A DNA stretch of 64,000 nt from Candidatus Woesebacteria bacterium GW2011_GWB1_39_12 (GTDB taxonomy: Bacteria > Patescibacteriota > Microgenomatia > UBA8517), in assembly GCA_000993405.1 (NCBI GenBank), contig LBWB01000009.1, forward strand, positions 77,848 to 141,847, read 5' to 3'. A program made the translations under genes and the position numbers. Below the pieces are notes generated by a model. It searched no databases and was not told the origin of the DNA. It worked only from the letters and a program-made list of their open reading frames with translations. Numbering within the stretch: position 1 is the stretch's first letter; each line of letters starts with the position of its first letter. Positions 3,337-44,213 of this stretch are shown here, piece after piece.

Positions 3337-4551
3337 TTAAGTATTTCTTGCATCTTTATTCTGTGGAAGTTTATACGCTTTAACATAGTCGATTACTTTT
3401 AAAATCCATTCAGCAATTTGCTCCATTTCCTTTTCCTTCATACCTCTTGCGGTTATTGCCGGCGTCCCCAGTCGAATCCCCGATGGATAAAAGGGTGGCA
3501 TCGGATCATTCGGAACCGAGTTTCTGTTAACAACAACTCCGGCTATCTCGAGTGCTTCTGCTACAACATTTCCGGAAAGTCCAAGCGGCATAAGGTTTAC
3601 TACTACTAAGTGGCTCTCAGTTCCGTCACCATAAAGGCTAAGGCCGCCCATTTTAAGAGCAACTCCTAAGGCTATAGCGTTTTTTACAACCTGTTTTCCA
3701 TATTTTTTGAATTCGGGCATTTCAGCTTTTTCAAGAGCAACAGCAATTCCTGCCGTTGTATTATTATGTGGCCCGCCTTGAAGACCAGGGAAAACTGCTC
3801 TATCAATTTTTGATGGCAACACCGGGTCCTTTTTTAAGCCTTTATTTGTCACCCAAATAATCGCTCCTCTTGGCCCGCGAAGAGTTTTATGAGTCGTTGA
3901 AGTAATAACGTGTGCATAATTAATTGGGGAAGGATAAGCACCTGCAACAATTAGACCAATAACATGAGAAATATCCGCAACCAACCAGGCACCTATCGAA
4001 TCAGCAATTTCTGAAAACTTTTTCCAATCAAAAGCCAAGGGATAAGCCGTAGTTCCTATAAGCATCAATTTTGGCTTCTCAACTTTTGCAAACTTGGCGA
4101 TTTTTGAATAGTTCAATCTCCCATCTTCATCAACGCCAAACTGTACAGACCTAAAGTATTTTCCAGAAAATGTAATGTCGGGGTGACCGTGAGTAAGATG
4201 CCCTCCAACTTTTAACTGCATCCCCATTACGGTTTCGCCAGGGTTGACTAAAGCAAAATAAACCGCTGAATTGGCAGGAGAACCGGAATATGGCTGAACA
4301 TTTGCATGAGGAGTTCCAAAAAGTTTTTTTGCCCTTTCAACTGCAAGCCTCTCAATGTCATCAACTATTTTGTTACCCTGGTAATATCGTGCACCCGAAT
4401 AGCCCTCTGAATATTTATGCATGAGGATTGATCCAACCGCTTCCCGAACCTCGGGATAGGTATAATTCTCCGACGGAATCATCATAAGCGTCTCCGCCTG
4501 CCTTTTTTCCTCTTTCTTAATTAATTCCAATATTTTATCCATGTATTTCAA
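3337..4551 (-). CDS. glyA: serine hydroxymethyltransferase
   Basis: 404-aa ORF; SHMT hallmarks (…LKVGGHLTHGHP…, PLP-lysine region …TTHKTLRGPRG…). Confidence 0.95.
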   Translation of the reverse strand: MKYMDKILELIKKEEKRQAETLMMIPSENYTYPEVREAVGSILMHKYSEGYSGARYYQGNKIVDDIERLAVERAKKLFGTPHANVQPYSGSPANSAVYFALVNPGETVMGMQLKVGGHLTHGHPDITFSGKYFRSVQFGVDEDGRLNYSKIAKFAKVEKPKLMLIGTTAYPLAFDWKKFSEIADSIGAWLVADISHVIGLIVAGAYPSPINYAHVITSTTHKTLRGPRGAIIWVTNKGLKKDPVLPSKIDRAVFPGLQGGPHNNTTAGIAVALEKAEMPEFKKYGKQVVKNAIALGVALKMGGLSLYGDGTESHLVVVNLMPLGLSGNVVAEALEIAGVVVNRNSVPNDPMPPFYPSGIRLGTPAITARGMKEKEMEQIAEWILKVIDYVKAYKLPQNKDARNT

Positions 4552-7504: not shown

Positions 7505-7595
7505 TTTTCAATAATTAATAAACTCAAGAAATCTTACTTATCATAAATTATAAAATTAACTTGATTTATTCAATACACGCAGATAATATACAACC

Positions 7596-8432
7596 ATGAA
7601 AGAATACCTCGACCTAGTTGAAGATGTTATGACAAACGGAAAACCAAGGCAAGGACCAAAACCAGAAGGAACAATTGCTGTATTTGGAAGACAAGTAAGA
7701 TATAATTTAGCTGATGGTTTCCCCTTAATAACTACTCGCGACCTAAGTAAATCTTGGTTAAAAGTCATAGTTCCAGAACTTCTATGGATAATATCTGGTA
7801 GCACAAATGCAAACGACCTCCACAAGTATGGCAGTAATTTATGGGATAAATGGGCAAAGGCAGCCGAGGAAAAAGTCGGTTATCAAAATGGGGAGCTGGG
7901 TCCAATTTACGGCCATCAGCTTCGTAATTTTGGGGGACAAGTTGATCAACTTACACAAGTAATCGGAATGTTACAGCGAGAACCAGAAACACGCAGAGCA
8001 ATAATTAGTCTTTGGAACTTGAGTGATGTCGAGACCCCAGAAGGCAAACACACAGTAGATGTTGCGCCATGCATTGCAATGTTTCACTTTGCTCAAATGG
8101 GTGGAAAATTAGATCTTATAATGACCCAGCGAAGTGCAGATATCCCAATTGGTGTACCAAATGACGTTGCCGAGTGGGCGCTTTTTCAGATGTTAATTGC
8201 GAAAGAGGTTAATTTACCACCAGGAGAATTCATTCATAACCTAGATGACGCACACATCTATGTTGACCAAATCCCTGCTATGAAAGAGTTGCTTACAAGA
8301 GAACCCAAAGTGCGTCCAGATGTAACCATTGCAAACTCACTAACGGGAACTATTTATGACCATGTAGTGGAAGACTTTCAGCTACTCAATTACAACCCCC
8401 ATCCGCCAATTAAGATTCCCGTTGCTTTGTAG
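7596..8432 (+). CDS. thyA: thymidylate synthase
   Basis: 278 aa; ThyA family (…MKEYLDLV…, …PCIAMFHF…, …DAHIY…). Confidence 0.9.
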   Translation: MKEYLDLVEDVMTNGKPRQGPKPEGTIAVFGRQVRYNLADGFPLITTRDLSKSWLKVIVPELLWIISGSTNANDLHKYGSNLWDKWAKAAEEKVGYQNGELGPIYGHQLRNFGGQVDQLTQVIGMLQREPETRRAIISLWNLSDVETPEGKHTVDVAPCIAMFHFAQMGGKLDLIMTQRSADIPIGVPNDVAEWALFQMLIAKEVNLPPGEFIHNLDDAHIYVDQIPAMKELLTREPKVRPDVTIANSLTGTIYDHVVEDFQLLNYNPHPPIKIPVAL

Positions 8433-20745: not shown

Positions 20746-23001
20746 ATGGTCGAAAAAATTAAAAATAGTATCACAGTAGTTTATTATCTGTTGTTTTTTA
20801 GTGTACCTCTTATTTTTCATCCTCAAACTTCAGAGCTTTTTGAATTTAACAAAATGGTACTAACCTACGCGTTAACAACATTTATTGTTTCGTTATGGCT
20901 TATCCGCATGATTCTCGAGAAAAAGATTATCTTTCGTCGCACAATATTGGATATACCTTTAATAATTTTCCTGATTTCTCAATTCCTAAGTACCTTAATC
21001 TCCATAGATTCAAGAACTTCCCTTTTAGGCTACTATTCCCGCTTCCATGGAGGTTTGGCATCAAGTCTTTCTTATTCGCTTCTCTACTGGGCATTTGTTT
21101 CAAATATGCATCGTTTAGAGGTAATAAAATCAATAAAAATTCTTATCACAAGCGCATTTTTAATAAGTATCTGGGCGATATTTGAGCACTTCGGCCGCTC
21201 ATTCAGCTGTCTTTTAGTTCCGGAGTTTCGTAGCTTCGATGCTTCATGCTGGGTACAGGACGTTCAAAATAGAGTCTATGCAACCCTTGGGCAACCCAAT
21301 TGGTTGGCGGCTTGGATAGTAGCACTCACACCATTAACGTGGGGGTTCGCTTTAATATCAAATATCAATCCTTCGGCAAAGTTCAGGATTGATGCTGAGC
21401 GAAGTCGAAGCATCAAAAATCAAAAATCAAAATTACAAAGCAAAAAGACAAATATTTTAAAGTTTGTTTTTTGGGTTACCCTTTCAATTTTATTCTTTTC
21501 AACTTTATTGTTCACCAAGTCTAGATCTGGATTACTTGGATTTGGAGTAGCAAACTTGACTTTCTGGGCACTGTCTTTCTTATTCTCCCTTAAACATAAT
21601 ATTGAAAAAAAACACTTTCTCAAAACATTTGTAATTTGTAATTTGGCGTTTGTAATTCTCGCCCTGGCGAGCGGCACTCCTTGGACTCCGAATTTAAAAA
21701 ATGAGGGCTTGCCCGCCGAAGCCCTGAGCGACGCCGAAGGGGTGAAGGCGGGTCCTGCGCTCGAGGTAGGAGGTTCGTCTTCCGTAGAAATTAGAAAAAT
21801 TGTCTGGAAAGGGGCAATCGATATTTGGAAACACTATCCAATCTTGGGTACGGGCGTAGAAACTTTTGCCTTTTCCTACTATAACTTCCGGCCGGTAGAA
21901 CATAATTTGGTTTCGGAGTGGGACTTTCTTTACAATAAAGCACACAATGAATACCTTAACTATGCTGCAACTGCAGGCACGGTTGGACTCCTCGCATATC
22001 TCTTACTAATATGCTTCTCTGTCTACCAAATTTCTAATATCAAATTTCTGGGACAAAGTCCAAAGGATTTATCCGCCATTTCTAAACAAATCCCAAATTC
22101 CAAATCCCAATTAGGCCAATCAGAGCAATCAGAAATTAGTCTTTTGAGCATAGCATTATTATCTGGCTTTATATCAATCCTTATGACCAACTTCTTTGGC
22201 TTTTCCGTCGTCCCCGTCGCACTACAATTTTTCCTCTTTCCTGCATTTGCAATTACGCTTGCAGGACAAAGTGCAGAGGACAAAGTGCAAAGATTTGAAA
22301 AAATCGAATCATCTAACTCACAAAAAACCCTAGTCTTCTTTGTTTTTTGTACTATGCTCTTTGCGCTATTTTCCATAGGAAAATACTGGTATGGAGACTT
22401 TCTTTATGCAAAAGGAAAGATGTTTAACGATTCGCAGGAATATATTAAAGCCCAGGCTACACTTGCGAAAGCCGCAATGCTTTCTCCAAAAGAAAGCGTT
22501 TATCATGGAGAACTGGCTGACGTTGCATCAACTCTAGCAATCATCGCTTACGAGGAAGGCGATGAAGATCTTGCAAAAAAATTCGTGGAAATTGCAATTT
22601 ATGAGTCTGATATGGCAGCAAAACTTTCACCAGCAAATATCACTTTAAAAAGGGATAGAGCCAACATGTTTATCAAATTGTCGATAATCGATCCGAGTTT
22701 TCTGATCAGTGCTCGCAATACATTAATAGAAACGGTAAAGTTTGCCCCAACCGAAGCGAAACTTTCTTATAATCTGGGCGTGACCTATCTTCGTACCGGC
22801 GATTATGAAAAGGCAATTGAAATTATCCAAAAGGCGGTTGAGATGAAACCGAATTATAAGGAGGCTCACTATGCCCTTGCCCTTTTGTATATTGATAAAG
22901 GCGAAAAGGAAAAAGCCAAAGAAGAACTTCTTTATATTTTAGAAAATATCTCTTCCAATGATCCCGAAGTTAAGAGGGAGTTAGACGAATTAGGAATTTG
23001 A
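20746..23001 (+). CDS. polytopic membrane protein with O-antigen ligase (Wzy_C)-like core and C-terminal TPR repeats
   Basis: 751 aa; many TM segments; …NKAHNEYLNYAATAGTVGLLAYL… resembles the O-antigen ligase motif; C-terminal ~200 aa TPR-like (…YNLGVTYLRTGDYEKAIEIIQKAVEMKPNYKEAHYALALLY…). Confidence 0.7.
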   Translation: MVEKIKNSITVVYYLLFFSVPLIFHPQTSELFEFNKMVLTYALTTFIVSLWLIRMILEKKIIFRRTILDIPLIIFLISQFLSTLISIDSRTSLLGYYSRFHGGLASSLSYSLLYWAFVSNMHRLEVIKSIKILITSAFLISIWAIFEHFGRSFSCLLVPEFRSFDASCWVQDVQNRVYATLGQPNWLAAWIVALTPLTWGFALISNINPSAKFRIDAERSRSIKNQKSKLQSKKTNILKFVFWVTLSILFFSTLLFTKSRSGLLGFGVANLTFWALSFLFSLKHNIEKKHFLKTFVICNLAFVILALASGTPWTPNLKNEGLPAEALSDAEGVKAGPALEVGGSSSVEIRKIVWKGAIDIWKHYPILGTGVETFAFSYYNFRPVEHNLVSEWDFLYNKAHNEYLNYAATAGTVGLLAYLLLICFSVYQISNIKFLGQSPKDLSAISKQIPNSKSQLGQSEQSEISLLSIALLSGFISILMTNFFGFSVVPVALQFFLFPAFAITLAGQSAEDKVQRFEKIESSNSQKTLVFFVFCTMLFALFSIGKYWYGDFLYAKGKMFNDSQEYIKAQATLAKAAMLSPKESVYHGELADVASTLAIIAYEEGDEDLAKKFVEIAIYESDMAAKLSPANITLKRDRANMFIKLSIIDPSFLISARNTLIETVKFAPTEAKLSYNLGVTYLRTGDYEKAIEIIQKAVEMKPNYKEAHYALALLYIDKGEKEKAKEELLYILENISSNDPEVKRELDELGI

Positions 23002-25718: not shown

Positions 25719-26102
25719 GGTTATTTTTGCTCTATTCAACTATTGACCTTTCTTGCTACAATATAAGTGACCCTGTGGAGGGGATTCGGGAAAGCCTTTT
25801 CTCACCGTTTTTTAAACAATGGGTGCCCATTAATTAAGGGCCTCGGGGCAAAGTTCCCGATTTCCACGGAGTCCCGAGAGAAATCGAGGGATTCTAAGGA
25901 CTTCGAGACAGCCTACCCACCTGGATTCATCCGGGAAAAGTCTTCTTCCGAACCCAAAGCAGGGTCATTCTTGAGCAAATCCAGCTTCAATAATAACTTC
26001 TGTAATGTTATAATCAGTCAGTCTCGCCGTCTTAGCTCAGTGGTAAGCAAAGCTTGGCCGAGTCAGACTCGGTAAGCAAAGCTTGGCCGCTGAGATGCGT
26101 TT

Positions 26103-26174
26103 GCCGTCTTAGCTCAGTGGTAGAGCAGCTGTTTTGTAAACAGCAGGTCTAGGGTTCGAATCCCTAAGACGGCT
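26103..26174 (+). tRNA. tRNA-Thr (anticodon UGU)
   Basis: Hand-folded cloverleaf: acceptor gccgtct/agacggc, D-arm gctc-agtggta-gagc, anticodon arm gctgt-tttgtaa-acagc, T-arm taggg-ttcgaat-cccta; CCA not encoded. Confidence 0.85.
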
Positions 26175-26199
26175 CAAGTGCAAACACACATTTTATTTA

Positions 26200-42741: not shown

Positions 42742-42996
42742 TCACTGAGTAGGACACCCCCCAAGAATGTCTCCGTGATTCAAATGCTCTTCCAAGTCGC
42801 TTTCTTTTAGTTCGATCAAACTCCAATAATCTCCCCCTTCCTCCTTGTGACAGACAACAAAAGTTTCTTTTTCTAACTCTTTGGCCTTATTTCTGAAATC
42901 CTGAACTTGTAAAACTAATACAACTCCTGCCGCAACACCTATGACTAATAGTAGTATCCCCAAAAGACCAAATGTATTTTTCCCTTTCTTTGCCAT
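42742..42996 (-). CDS. small membrane protein, hypothetical
   Basis: 84 aa; one TM; conserved-looking Cys/His (…VVCHKEEGG…HLNHGDILGGC…). Confidence 0.35.
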   Translation of the reverse strand: MAKKGKNTFGLLGILLLVIGVAAGVVLVLQVQDFRNKAKELEKETFVVCHKEEGGDYWSLIELKESDLEEHLNHGDILGGCPTQ

Positions 42997-43062
42997 TCCA
43001 GTATATTCAATTTAACTTCCTTGGTTTTTAAAGTCAAATATTGATATAATCGAGTCGAATCA

Positions 43063-43267
43063 AGCCGAGATAGCTCAGGGGTAGACCTGCCCGCCGAAGT
43101 CGTGCCGTCGTAGCTCAGTTGGTAGAGCGTGCCCTTGGTAAGGGCAAGGTCACCGGTCCAATTCCGGTCGACGGCTCCAAATACGTAGGCGGGGCACTTT
43201 CTTGCCTGCCTTTGGCAGGCGACTTCGTCTAAAGAAAGGGGTCGTGGGTTCAATTCCCACTCTCGGC
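43063..43267 (+). ncRNA. split tRNA-like shell (degenerate tRNA-Thr-like 5' and 3' portions) enclosing tRNA-Thr(GGU)
   Basis: 5' piece gccgaga-ta-gctcaggggtagacc-tgccc is 43063-43091. The 3' piece runs gggca, a 42-nt hairpin insert, gggtc, gtggg-ttcaatt-cccac, tctcggc, t (43191-43267). The acceptor has 7/7 perfect complementarity and the anticodon-stem halves tgccc/gggca match those of the inner tRNA. Confidence 0.4.
43103..43178 (+). tRNA. tRNA-Thr (anticodon GGU), CCA encoded
   Basis: Perfect cloverleaf: gccgtcg/cgacggc, tagctcagttggtagagc, tgccc-ttggtaa-gggca, aggtc, accgg-tccaatt-ccggt, t, cca. Confidence 0.9.
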
Positions 43268-43320
43268 TCAAATCAGTTAGATTGTTGCATGGTTACATTA
43301 ATAAAAGTAAAATACCTACT

Positions 43321-43506
43321 ATGGCTAAAAAAGGGGCAAGGGAAATAGTCGCATTAGTCTGTACTGTCTGCAAAAGTCAAAATTACGTGACTGAGCGGAA
43401 TAAGGTTAATATGGATTTGAAAGGCAAAGGCAAGCTGCAGATTAAAAAATGGTGCAAACGATGTAAGAAAGTCCAACTACATAAGGAGACCTCTAAACTA
43501 AAATAA
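43321..43506 (+). CDS. rpmG: 50S ribosomal protein L33 (zinc-ribbon type)
   Basis: Real start MAKKGAREIVALVCTVCKSQNY…KWCKRCKK (C4). The upstream in-frame Met of the track ORF is probably not used. Confidence 0.85.
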   Translation: MAKKGAREIVALVCTVCKSQNYVTERNKVNMDLKGKGKLQIKKWCKRCKKVQLHKETSKLK

Positions 43507-44142: not shown

Positions 44143-44213
44143 AGGGTCGTGGTGAAATGGTATCACGGCGGTCTCCAAAACCGCTTTTCCGGGTTCGAAT
44201 CCTGGCGACCCTG
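44143..44213 (+). tRNA. tRNA-Trp (anticodon CCA)
   Basis: agggtcg/cgaccct acceptor, gtga-aatggta-tcac D-arm, gcggt-ctccaaa-accgc anticodon arm, ccggg-ttcgaat-cctgg T-arm, discriminator g; CCA not encoded. Confidence 0.85.

Follow-up and report, generated by a model that had tools for sequence, protein, structure and literature searches.

A tRNA-Thr(GGU) gene nested within a broken tRNA-Thr(GGU) gene of a Woesebacteria genome

The nested locus and its parts

We analyzed a 64,000-nt stretch of DNA from Candidatus Woesebacteria bacterium GW2011_GWB1_39_12 (contig LBWB01000009.1, 77,848-141,847), here called the window, whose own positions serve as coordinates unless a fetched comparison locus (labels beginning with L) is named. 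This stretch holds a complete tRNA-Thr(GGU) gene enclosed by a second one, the outer shell, which spans 43064-43268 and is a copy of a 72-nt tRNA-Thr(GGU) gene broken by two insertions. The gene order at the locus is PGA_cap, two small membrane or secreted proteins, the nested feature, rpmG (ribosomal protein L33), a TrpR/YerC-like gene, tRNA-Trp and NUDIX. The parts of the nested feature are as follows, with the shell assigned to a type A and the inner gene to a type B that are described below:

43064..43085, + strand: shell 5′ part, comprising acceptor strand GCCGAGA, U8 and A9, D-stem 5′ strand GCTC, D-loop AGGGGTA and GA of the D-stem 3′ strand; 22/22 identical to L004, L005 and L006
43086..43193, + strand: insertion 1, a 108-nt cassette with leader CCTGCCCGCC-GAAGTCGT (43086-43103), cargo (43104-43179) and trailer AATACGTA-GGCGGG (43180-43193)
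43104..43179, + strand: inner cargo tRNA-Thr(GGU), type B, with the tRNA at 43104-43176 and an encoded CCA at 43177-43179 (ARAGORN and Rfam)
43194..43204, + strand: shell middle, comprising GC of the D-stem 3′ strand, A26, anticodon-stem 5′ strand CTTTC and loop nucleotides TTG; identical to L004 GCACTTTCTTG
43205..43229, + strand: insertion 2, 25 nt and cargo-less (CCTGCC-TTT-GGCAGG-CGACTTCGTC), in the true anticodon loop of the shell; unique in the window
43230..43268, + strand: shell 3′ part, comprising TAAA, GAAAG, variable region GGGTC, T-arm GTGGG TTCAATT CCCAC, acceptor strand TCTCGGC and discriminator T

The inner gene is canonical, as an earlier note made from this sequence had recognized with coordinates one base low. 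It scores 68.1 bits against the Rfam tRNA model (RF00005, gathering threshold 29) and has four perfect stems and a 7-nt anticodon loop. ARAGORN and Rfam place four tRNAs in the window (Thr(UGU) and Tyr at 26.1-26.3 kb, Thr(GGU) at 43104 and Trp at 44143), of which the inner gene alone encodes CCA; the shell's discriminator T is followed by CAA, as in the other three genes. The inner tRNA is 70% identical to the shell, and its best relative is the lone tRNA-Thr(GGU) of L146/L147, with 41/41 identical nucleotides at positions 8-48.

The intact counterpart of the shell lies at L004 2503-2574 (L004-L006), in Woesebacteria RIFCSPLOWO2_01_FULL_39_23, a genome whose L33 is 85% identical to that of the window and whose right flank likewise carries rpmG, a TrpR-like gene and tRNA-Trp. 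This gene reads GCCGAGA TA GCTC AGGGGTA GAGC A CTTTC TTGGTAA GAAAG GGGTC ATGGG TTCAATT CCCAT TCTCGGC T. On the shell's numbering, positions 1-23 correspond to 43064-43085, positions 24-34 to 43194-43204 and the remainder to 43230-43268. Removing 43086-43193 and 43205-43229 leaves 72 nt, the length of the L004 gene, which ARAGORN calls as a tRNA. The tRNA halves that had been noticed in the flanks, with 7/7 paired acceptor strands (GCCGAGA at 43064-70, TCTCGGC at 43261-67), the 5′ part of a D-arm and a consensus T-arm, are therefore real beyond chance, because the repaired flanks are identical to the L004 tRNA-Thr(GGU) at 68/72 positions. The four differences comprise the anticodon loop (TTGTAAA versus TTGGTAA) and one compensatory T-stem pair (A49-U65 to G49-C65), and the resulting T-arm is also found in the tRNA 3′ end located 5′ of rpmG in L145. 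The nested structure is not a chimera or an assembly artefact, since four assemblies (L010, L011, L012 and L014), independent of one another in sample and assembler, agree over its 261 nt at 100% identity.

This alignment revises the architecture that the earlier note had drawn, in which the inner tRNA occupied the anticodon-loop position of the outer one. Insertion 1, with its cargo, instead lies in the 3′ strand of the shell's D-stem, at 23/24, and a separate insert occupies the anticodon loop. The TGCCC/GGGCA pair (43088-92/43192-96) taken for the outer anticodon stem consists of the terminal inverted repeat of insertion 1 plus G24-C25-A26 of the shell. What had looked like a 42-nt hairpin insert (CTTTCTT...AAGAAAG) is the genuine anticodon stem, the CTTTC/GAAAG of L004, whose loop has gained 25 nucleotides. 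The likeness between the outer and inner anticodon stems is a coincidence of the cassette ends, as the nested locus L062 (see below) has the same ends and a cargo with an unrelated anticodon stem. The shell's D-arm (GCTC...GACC) appears degenerate because insertion 1 starts after GA.

The ends of insertion 1 pair as a basal stem, CCCGCC/GGCGGG, in the minimum-free-energy fold (inverted repeat I5). Insertion 1 is absent from the L004 gene, and removing it restores GAGCA exactly. Insertion 2 forms a GCCTGCC/GGCAGGC hairpin (inverted repeat I10) and has removed the GGU anticodon of the shell. Both insertions begin with the same hexamer, a CCTGCC-type start, and neither shows a target-site duplication, with no duplicated bases in GTAGA/.../GCA or TTG/.../TAAA (/ denotes the insertion boundary). 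An 8-bp complementarity between the two insertions (CGAAGTCG/CGACTTCG) and a possible third, middle shell were also considered, but a match of this kind is to be expected by chance (roughly p = 0.3).

No contiguous excision could restore TTGGTAA, with its GGU anticodon, in the shell; excision leaves the loop TTG/TAAA, in which GUA and not an NGU triplet occupies the anticodon position. Threonyl-tRNA synthetase (ThrRS) recognizes the NGU anticodon through G35 and U36. As no excision restores GGU, the shell cannot decode threonine codons, and it is, judged from its sequence, dead as a decoder. This evidence supports the possibility, raised in the earlier note, of a colonized tRNA pseudogene.

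In the native sequence, the shell (43064-43268) has no Rfam tRNA match at the gathering threshold and no ARAGORN call, including in the intron and pseudogene modes, because the two inserts defeat the tool. The lone match to the shell at E <= 10 is a 21-bit tRNA-Sec-like hit on 43187-43268 (gathering score 47). Folding of the region, which had been proposed for 43063-43267, yields nested cloverleaves (z = -4.5; 0/200 shuffles as stable).

Neighboring sequence suggests how the structure may be expressed, with two further features on the same strand:

43041..43050, + strand: promoter-like extended -10 TTGATATAAT, 13 nt 5′ of the shell, within a block (43020-43050) common to relatives with a plain tRNA
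43324..43506, + strand: rpmG (ribosomal protein L33; Pfam PF00471; product 100% identical to L33 of Candidatus Woesebacteria bacterium GW2011_GWB1_39_12, a groundwater CPR/Patescibacteria genome), 55 nt 3′ of the shell, used as the anchor for orthologous loci

The extended -10 was not listed by a consensus promoter scanner; it was read by eye and is supported by conservation, with counterparts in L389 (CTTGGTTTTTAAAGTCAAATgTTGATATAATC) and L146 (TTTTGATATAATTGAG), each directly 5′ of a lone tRNA-Thr(GGU). Because no terminator-like site lies between 43268 and 43324, rpmG is probably co-transcribed with the nested tRNA structure. An antisense open reading frame (ORF) at 42945-43271 (- strand, 108 aa, MSREWELNPRP..., with an ELNPRP motif) is an artefact of translating tRNA sequence in antisense; L099, another nested locus, carries an equivalent ORF, and such ORFs could be mis-annotated as genes.

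Relatives of the window locus carry one type of tRNA-Thr(GGU) or the other. A single plain type-B gene is present in L001, L388, L389 and L390, which share an upstream 84-aa gene and a near-identical upstream block with the window, and in L146/L147, where it lies immediately 5′ of rpmG behind a promoter homologous to TTGATATAAT. Type A is intact in L004 and persists as a 3′ end 5′ of rpmG in L145. The window locus is a mosaic, with a left flank like that of the B-type genomes and a right flank (rpmG and the TrpR-like gene) like that of the A-type genomes. In Woesebacteria, then, one promoter serves either of two tRNA-Thr(GGU) lineages, and in the window B lies inside A. The earlier note would have abandoned nesting had relatives shown an ordinary single tRNA-Thr with unrelated flanks and had covariance models left the outer halves unscored. 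Relatives do have the single gene and the native halves are unscored, yet the flanks are not unrelated, being homologous to a real tRNA gene; ARAGORN, which it had suggested running, likewise makes no outer call on the native sequence and calls a tRNA once the inserts are removed.

Other observations concern these same lineages. In L004, a gene for a 23S rRNA intervening-sequence protein (PF05635; 2766-2963) lies between tRNA-Thr(GGU) and rpmG and is absent from the window, and an rve-family integrase gene lies ~1.2 kb upstream of the tRNA. Partial, decayed tRNA copies beside intact ones are common in these lineages. Within the window, a 20-nt 5′ fragment of tRNA-Thr(UGU), GCCGTCTTAGCTCAGTGGTA, ends at the D-loop end 57 nt upstream of the intact gene at 26103-26175, and the spacer before that gene has two copies of GGTAAGCAAAGCTTGGCCG around a CCGAGTC-A-GACTCGG hairpin. 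On another Woesebacteria contig (L016 1448-1508), a 5′ fragment of tRNA-Thr(GGU) has the homologous motif GGTAAACAAAGTTTGGCCACTGA after it. The window's fragment and spacer together (26026-26102) may be the decayed remains of an older shell, or else a conserved leader element.

A family of tRNA-carrying cassettes

A scan with the shell's 5′ 22-mer returned 125 loci, mostly ordinary tRNA-Thr genes of Bacteroidota and the candidate phyla radiation (CPR). Flank-stem and split-tRNA scans of these 125 loci identified three further nested tRNA-Thr loci, L062 and L142 (CPR) and L099 (Bacteroidota), making four with the window. Their cassettes have ends of the CCYGCCYGCC...GGCRGGCRGG type and occupy positions 23/24 or 35/36 of the host tRNA. 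Those bearing cargo measure 108 nt in the window, 109 and 112 nt in L062, 111 nt in L099 and 112 nt in L142.

L062 (Patescibacteria KR11_N3.mb.38, 4156-4450) carries a tRNA-Thr(UGU)-like shell beside tRNA-Tyr, with two cassettes that each contain a complete tRNA-Thr(UGU) and that occupy the same two sites as the insertions in the window. The first, of 109 nt, lies in the D-arm at 23/24 (GTAGA/CCTGCCCGCC...[Thr UGU]...GGCAGGCGGG/GCA) and has imperfect X/Y inverted-repeat ends. The second, of 112 nt, lies in the anticodon loop at 35/36 and is closed by a 10-bp stem (CCCCGCACCA/TGGTGCGGGG). Between the window and the first L062 cassette the junctions are identical at 18/18 positions on the left (GGGGTAGA/CCTGCCCGCC) and 10/10 on the right (AGGCGGG/GCA). 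The cargos, in comparison, are identical at 43/73 positions and have different anticodons (GGU versus UGU), and the shells are different genes. In L142, where the gene order is CPR-like, a 112-nt cassette, CCCGCCTGCC...[Thr UGU + CCA]...GGCGGGCAGG, interrupts a tRNA-Thr(UGU) shell at 35/36. L099 is from a Cytophagales-like member of the Bacteroidota (gene order Rrf2, tRNA-Thr(CGU), CrcB), and its tRNA gene is split at 35/36 by the 111-nt CCTGCCTGC...[Thr CGU]...GCAGGCAGG. Precise excision from L099 would restore TTCGTAA, and the locus folds as a double cloverleaf (z = -6.1). Its empty site is represented by 23/26 fetched relatives with an adjacent Rrf2 gene (several also with CrcB), in which the tRNA is uninterrupted and sequence-identical.

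Terminal inverted repeats are present across the family, and stems of 8-10 bp close the cassettes of L142, L099 and the second site of L062. The pattern CCTGCC[CT]GC has 18 matches in 1.03 Mb, 5 of them within 60 nt of a tRNA (~1.2 expected), and each of these 5 is a cassette end. Basal leader/trailer stems of >= 8 bp occur in 6/285 tRNA contexts, half of which (3/6) are cassettes. When each of 286 predicted tRNAs in the fetched loci was removed together with 0-30 nt per flank and a tRNA re-called across the junction, a spanning tRNA was robust in two contexts, the window locus (772/961 combinations) and L099 (807/961); this test detects only shells that are still intact. A third candidate, tRNA-Tyr nested in tRNA-Thr in L046, proved a false positive of the test, the two genes being merely 8 nt apart.

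The shells show graded decay. That of L062 has lost the anticodon-stem 3′ strand and has a G-G acceptor mismatch, and its first cargo has a U-C anticodon-stem mismatch and a TTTGAAT T-loop. In the L142 shell the acceptor stem contains an A-C mismatch, and the T-loop, GATAAAATT, is of a non-tRNA kind. In L099 a 14-nt hairpin replaces the variable loop, while the substitutions C43U and G49A keep pairing. This gradation argues against long-term upkeep of the shells. In the window and L099 the insertions are probably recent, because all shell helices still pair. Two cargos in the one L062 shell, the first already decaying, suggest serial replacement.

Other candidate signatures of the family did not hold up. 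Viral contigs scanned with the junction patterns GTAGACCTGCCCGCC and CCTGCCCGCCN{6,14}GCCG gave 240 loci, none in a tRNA context (median guanine-cytosine (GC) content 64%); these are chance matches and offer no support for a phage origin. The trailer motif TAGGCGGG was dropped as a general signature, with 3/12 matches near tRNAs and without clear enrichment beyond the window and L062. In the 64-kb window itself there are no dispersed copies: the flank sequences are unique and a single CCTGCC-type hairpin is present, which excludes a dispersed repeat family there. A 15/18 match to the leader at 21708 falls in a GC-rich patch (21700-21790, GGGCTTGCCCGCCGAAGCCCTGAGCGACGCCGAAGGGGTGAAGGCGGGTCC) inside a 751-aa ORF (20746-23001), in a window that is otherwise 40% GC; the patch is probably a coincidence or a low-complexity coding insert.

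Several comparison loci contain decayed tRNA-like copies of other kinds. In L068 (- strand, Peribacteria; 7508-7640 in reverse-complement coordinates), a pseudo-tRNA-Trp ~300 nt upstream of an intact tRNA-Trp carries the GC-rich insert CCGCGCC-TAC-GGCGGG directly after D-loop GGTA and a second insert with CATAGGCGGGCA in its anticodon-stem 3′ strand. It resembles the window cassette without cargo, and by its sequence the phenomenon may extend beyond tRNA-Thr. Decayed copies lie upstream of tRNA-Thr(CGU) in L027 and L112 (Chryseolinea-like Bacteroidota) and downstream of a tRNA-Thr gene in L051 (Gracilibacteria). In the decayed copies of L027/L112, L051 and L019, a GC-rich hairpin stands in for the anticodon arm (TGGCGCG-CTG-CGCGCCA, CCCCGC-TGTATA-GCGGGG and TCCCGC-GTT-GCGGGA). 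L019 6510-6576 (Peribacteria, CAZBGQ010000003.1), where the sequence ends 39 nt into a second copy, may be a further nested case. A Deltaproteobacteria metagenome-assembled genome (MAG; L072) has similar palindromes at ~3699 and ~7194 (CCTGCCTGCCGGTCAGGCAGG and CCTGCCTGCCGGCAGGCA), within 8 kb of sequence and with one of them 80 nt upstream of tRNA-Thr(CGU); they may form a family of repetitive extragenic palindromic (REP)-like elements with the same CCTGCC arms. Separately, L076 (- strand), from a Bacteroidetes MAG, has five near-identical tandem tRNA genes in ~600 nt with the loop CTTCAGT (anticodon UCA, which would read UGA); this may be a suppressor or recoding tRNA cluster.

Origin of the nested arrangement

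We consider it probable, on the sequence comparisons above, that at the window locus a type-A tRNA-Thr(GGU) gene survives as a dead shell enclosing a functioning type-B gene, and that a site-specific cassette with a tRNA as cargo gave rise to this arrangement. The same ends at the same position in the window and L062 genes, together with empty sites in L004 and in the 23/26 relatives of L099, are as expected of site-specific insertion. The shared ends and sites also lend support to the tRNA-derived mobile cassette that the earlier note had listed among its possibilities.

Several points weigh against this interpretation. The inner type-B tRNA is presumed from its sequence to be the working gene, and its T-loop, TCCAATT with C55, is found in 3/155 unique tRNAs of the fetched loci; an exact 30-mer of it (AAGGTCACCGGTYCAATTCCGGTCGACGGC) has 0 matches in genome, viral and metagenome contigs. 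Neither insert has flanking direct repeats, and the features fit no known chemistry of transposition or integration. The genes called in the ~2-kb flanks (PGA_cap, L33, Trp_repressor, NUDIX, cyclase and three products without a Pfam match) include no integrase or transposase. The 10-bp stem of the second L062 cassette is unrelated to the CCYGCC ends. A residual or transient structural role is possible for the intact shells of the window and L099. All four nested loci, the only ones known, came from the tRNA-Thr 22-mer scan, and both the specificity for Thr and the matching isoacceptors of cargo and shell may be ascertainment effects. Finally, the left-flank relatives are all type B, and the A shell could either have been resident in the window lineage or have been brought in by recombination with the rpmG side.

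The last point touches on the foremost alternative, a one-off illegitimate recombination between A and B alleles or paralogues of tRNA-Thr(GGU) that left B inside A without any mobile element. That relatives have either type at this locus (A in L004 and L145; B in L146, L001 and L388-L390) favors such an event, as do the mosaic flanks and the frequency of decayed partial copies beside intact tRNAs. It leaves unexplained the 18/18 and 10/10 junction identity with L062, a different gene in a different organism, as well as the 108-112-nt size, the CCYGCC...GGCRGG ends in four loci including Bacteroidota, and the second insert with a CCTGCC start in the same 72-nt gene. We regard recombination of this kind as unlikely.

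Descent from a larger element, one borne by an integrase, equipped with its own tRNA-Thr and internally deleted down to the tRNA alone, seems to us less likely still. tRNA genes are classic integration sites. Integrative elements leave partial tRNA gene copies (van der Gulik et al. 2023, PMC9897764). A classical CPR version is found in L020 (Peribacteria, 27-2176), where the 5′ two-thirds of a pseudo-tRNA-Thr(GGU) are followed by 110 nt, a complete, different tRNA-Thr(GGU) and two tyrosine integrases (PF00589, E = 2.5e-34 and 1.7e-16), so that the element brings its own whole replacement tRNA. The window resembles such cases in having a tRNA gene as target and a dead remnant beside a functional gene for the same isoacceptor. 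It differs in that classical attachment-site duplications involve kilobase-sized elements, direct repeats and a 3′ fragment, whereas here both gene halves flank an insert of ~110 nt with inverted-repeat ends. Tyrosine-integrase integration leaves core direct repeats at both junctions, and the junctions here have none; the genes called in the ~2-kb flanks include no integrase. Independent deletions, moreover, would not yield 108-112 nt five times, nor inverted repeats abutting the target. Williams (2002) is reported to give the anticodon loop, the T-loop and the 3′ end as the known integration sublocations in tRNA genes, not the D-stem at 23/24.

About as improbable, in our estimation, is a functional composite in which the shell is kept for processing or stabilizing the inner tRNA or rpmG mRNA. 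The GC-rich basal stem might serve as an RNase III site, the acceptor/T-arm minihelix as a substrate of RNase P/Z or of the CCA-adding enzyme, or the whole as an anticodon-less decoy. Several observations are in keeping with such a role. The window and L099 retain every one of the four shell helices, and the few substitutions there preserve pairing (A-U to G-C in the window; C43U and G49A in L099), and both loci fold as clean double cloverleaves (z = -4.5 and -6.1). All five cargo cassettes keep a basal stem even where its sequence differs, as in the second cassette of L062, a covariation-like pattern, and no terminator precedes rpmG. The shells of L062 and L142, however, have lost helices and loops, which argues against long-term constraint, and close relatives do without a shell. 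The T-stem variant of the window also occurs in the A-type fragment of L145 and need not postdate the insertion, and the substitutions are too few for a statistical test. The rRNA intervening sequences of CPR and other bacteria, which are cut out at a basal stem and not religated, are similar in being helix-based inserts in a structural RNA gene, and the basal GC stem could by analogy be a processing site. In contrast to fragmented rRNA, which works as a non-covalent assembly, a tRNA cut in the anticodon loop or the D-stem would not decode, and the basal duplex, at 6-10 bp, is not of RNase III length.

An insert in a tRNA gene also invites comparison with introns. Group I introns of Patescibacteria tRNA genes are self-splicing ribozymes 184-894 nt long, have hosts that include tRNA-Thr(GGU), use the 35/36 site and restore the tRNA (PMC13011429). 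Phylum, tRNA-Thr(GGU) target and the 35/36 site are shared with the cassettes (the site with L099, L142 and the second L062 cassette), and in both cases interrupted genes are missed or mis-called by standard finders. The inserts of the window differ in that one of them carries a whole tRNA and occupies the D-stem, and in leaving a host tRNA that cannot be restored. A search of 42990-43330 gave no match to Intron_gpI (RF00028) at E <= 10, a model that divergent Patescibacteria tRNA-Thr introns also escape; size and boundaries were therefore compared as well. Both inserts fall short of the ~180 nt or more of a group I intron. Nor do the boundaries follow the group I rule of a 5′ exon ending in U and an intron ending in G: the exons end in A (43085) and G (43204), insertion 1 in G and insertion 2 in C. 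The disrupted tRNAs of Archaea and red algae include multi-intron, split and permuted genes with bulge-helix-bulge motifs (PMC4090602, PMC3218864, PMC3728597). Inserts in the D-arm and anticodon loop, more than one insert per gene and pairing insert ends are common to these and the window. Those genes depend on the archaeal/eukaryal splicing endonuclease and give a single functional tRNA, whereas here the hosts are Bacteria, the helices are flush and the insert is itself a tRNA gene. By inspection, no bulge-helix-bulge (3-nt bulge, 4-bp helix, 3-nt bulge) is present at the junctions, where the basal helix runs right up to the insertion point on each strand.

RtcB ligation requires an end chemistry that RNase P/Z products lack. 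The composite RNA that the earlier note had entertained, read as an intron-containing outer tRNA from which the inner one is excised to give two functional tRNAs, can be set aside as very improbable: the L099 and L142 cassettes do sit in the anticodon loop at 35/36 and excision from L099 would restore TTCGTAA, yet the tRNA-bearing insert of the window is in the D-stem, the shell's anticodon is irrecoverable, the inserts are 108 and 25 nt rather than 184-894 nt, the 5′ exons end in A or G and not U, neither group I nor bulge-helix-bulge features are found, and the L062 and L142 shells have decayed.

Proposed route and implications

The interpretation we favor, cassette insertion into a resident tRNA-Thr gene, would work as follows. 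Transcription would begin ~7 nt upstream of the shell, from the conserved TGATATAAT promoter, and continue through the structure and probably into rpmG. RNase P would cut at 43103/43104 to free the 5′ end of the inner tRNA, whose 3′ end would be trimmed to the encoded CCA, leaving the shell pieces as discarded by-products. Insertion 1 would belong to a family of 108-112-nt cassettes made up of (CCYG)2CC ... GG(CRGG)2 ends, a leader, a complete tRNA and a trailer. Such cassettes would insert without target duplication at 23/24 and 35/36 of a resident tRNA-Thr, disabling the resident and supplying its replacement, after which the shell would decay. Insertion 2 would be a cargo-less relative or the footprint of such a cassette.

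We put forward, tentatively and as less likely to be right than wrong, the broader proposal that these loci represent an undescribed class of ~110-nt hairpin-ended tRNA cassettes, a replace-and-addict selfish element that causes serial tRNA replacement in at least CPR/Patescibacteria and Bacteroidota. If so, the cassette enters a resident tRNA gene of the same amino-acid family, site-specifically and with no duplication of the target; the resident gene is killed and the cargo substituted for it, and the host therefore cannot lose the cassette. The insertion may take place where the D and anticodon regions are exposed, in a folded tRNA or in a tRNA-gene single strand. Miniature inverted-repeat transposable elements (MITEs) and REP-like elements are comparable in being small, having terminal inverted repeats or GC-rich palindromes and lacking coding capacity for mobilization. 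Unlike MITEs, the cassettes show no target-site duplication and no dispersal in the 64-kb window, their target is strictly inside a tRNA gene, and they carry a functional tRNA as cargo. Our literature search, which was incomplete, found no published account of one bacterial tRNA gene lying inside another.

Standard tRNA finders see the inner gene and miss the shell, and shells and hairpin-substituted remnants may be mis-called, which affects estimates of tRNA complement and genome completeness for CPR bacteria. The nested state in the window would represent a replacement caught in the act, a route between two tRNA-Thr(GGU) lineages at one promoter. If the class proves real, the cassette family would constitute a mobile or site-specific element of a new type, one that destroys the same kind of essential gene that it carries as cargo and whose ends are conserved in two phyla.

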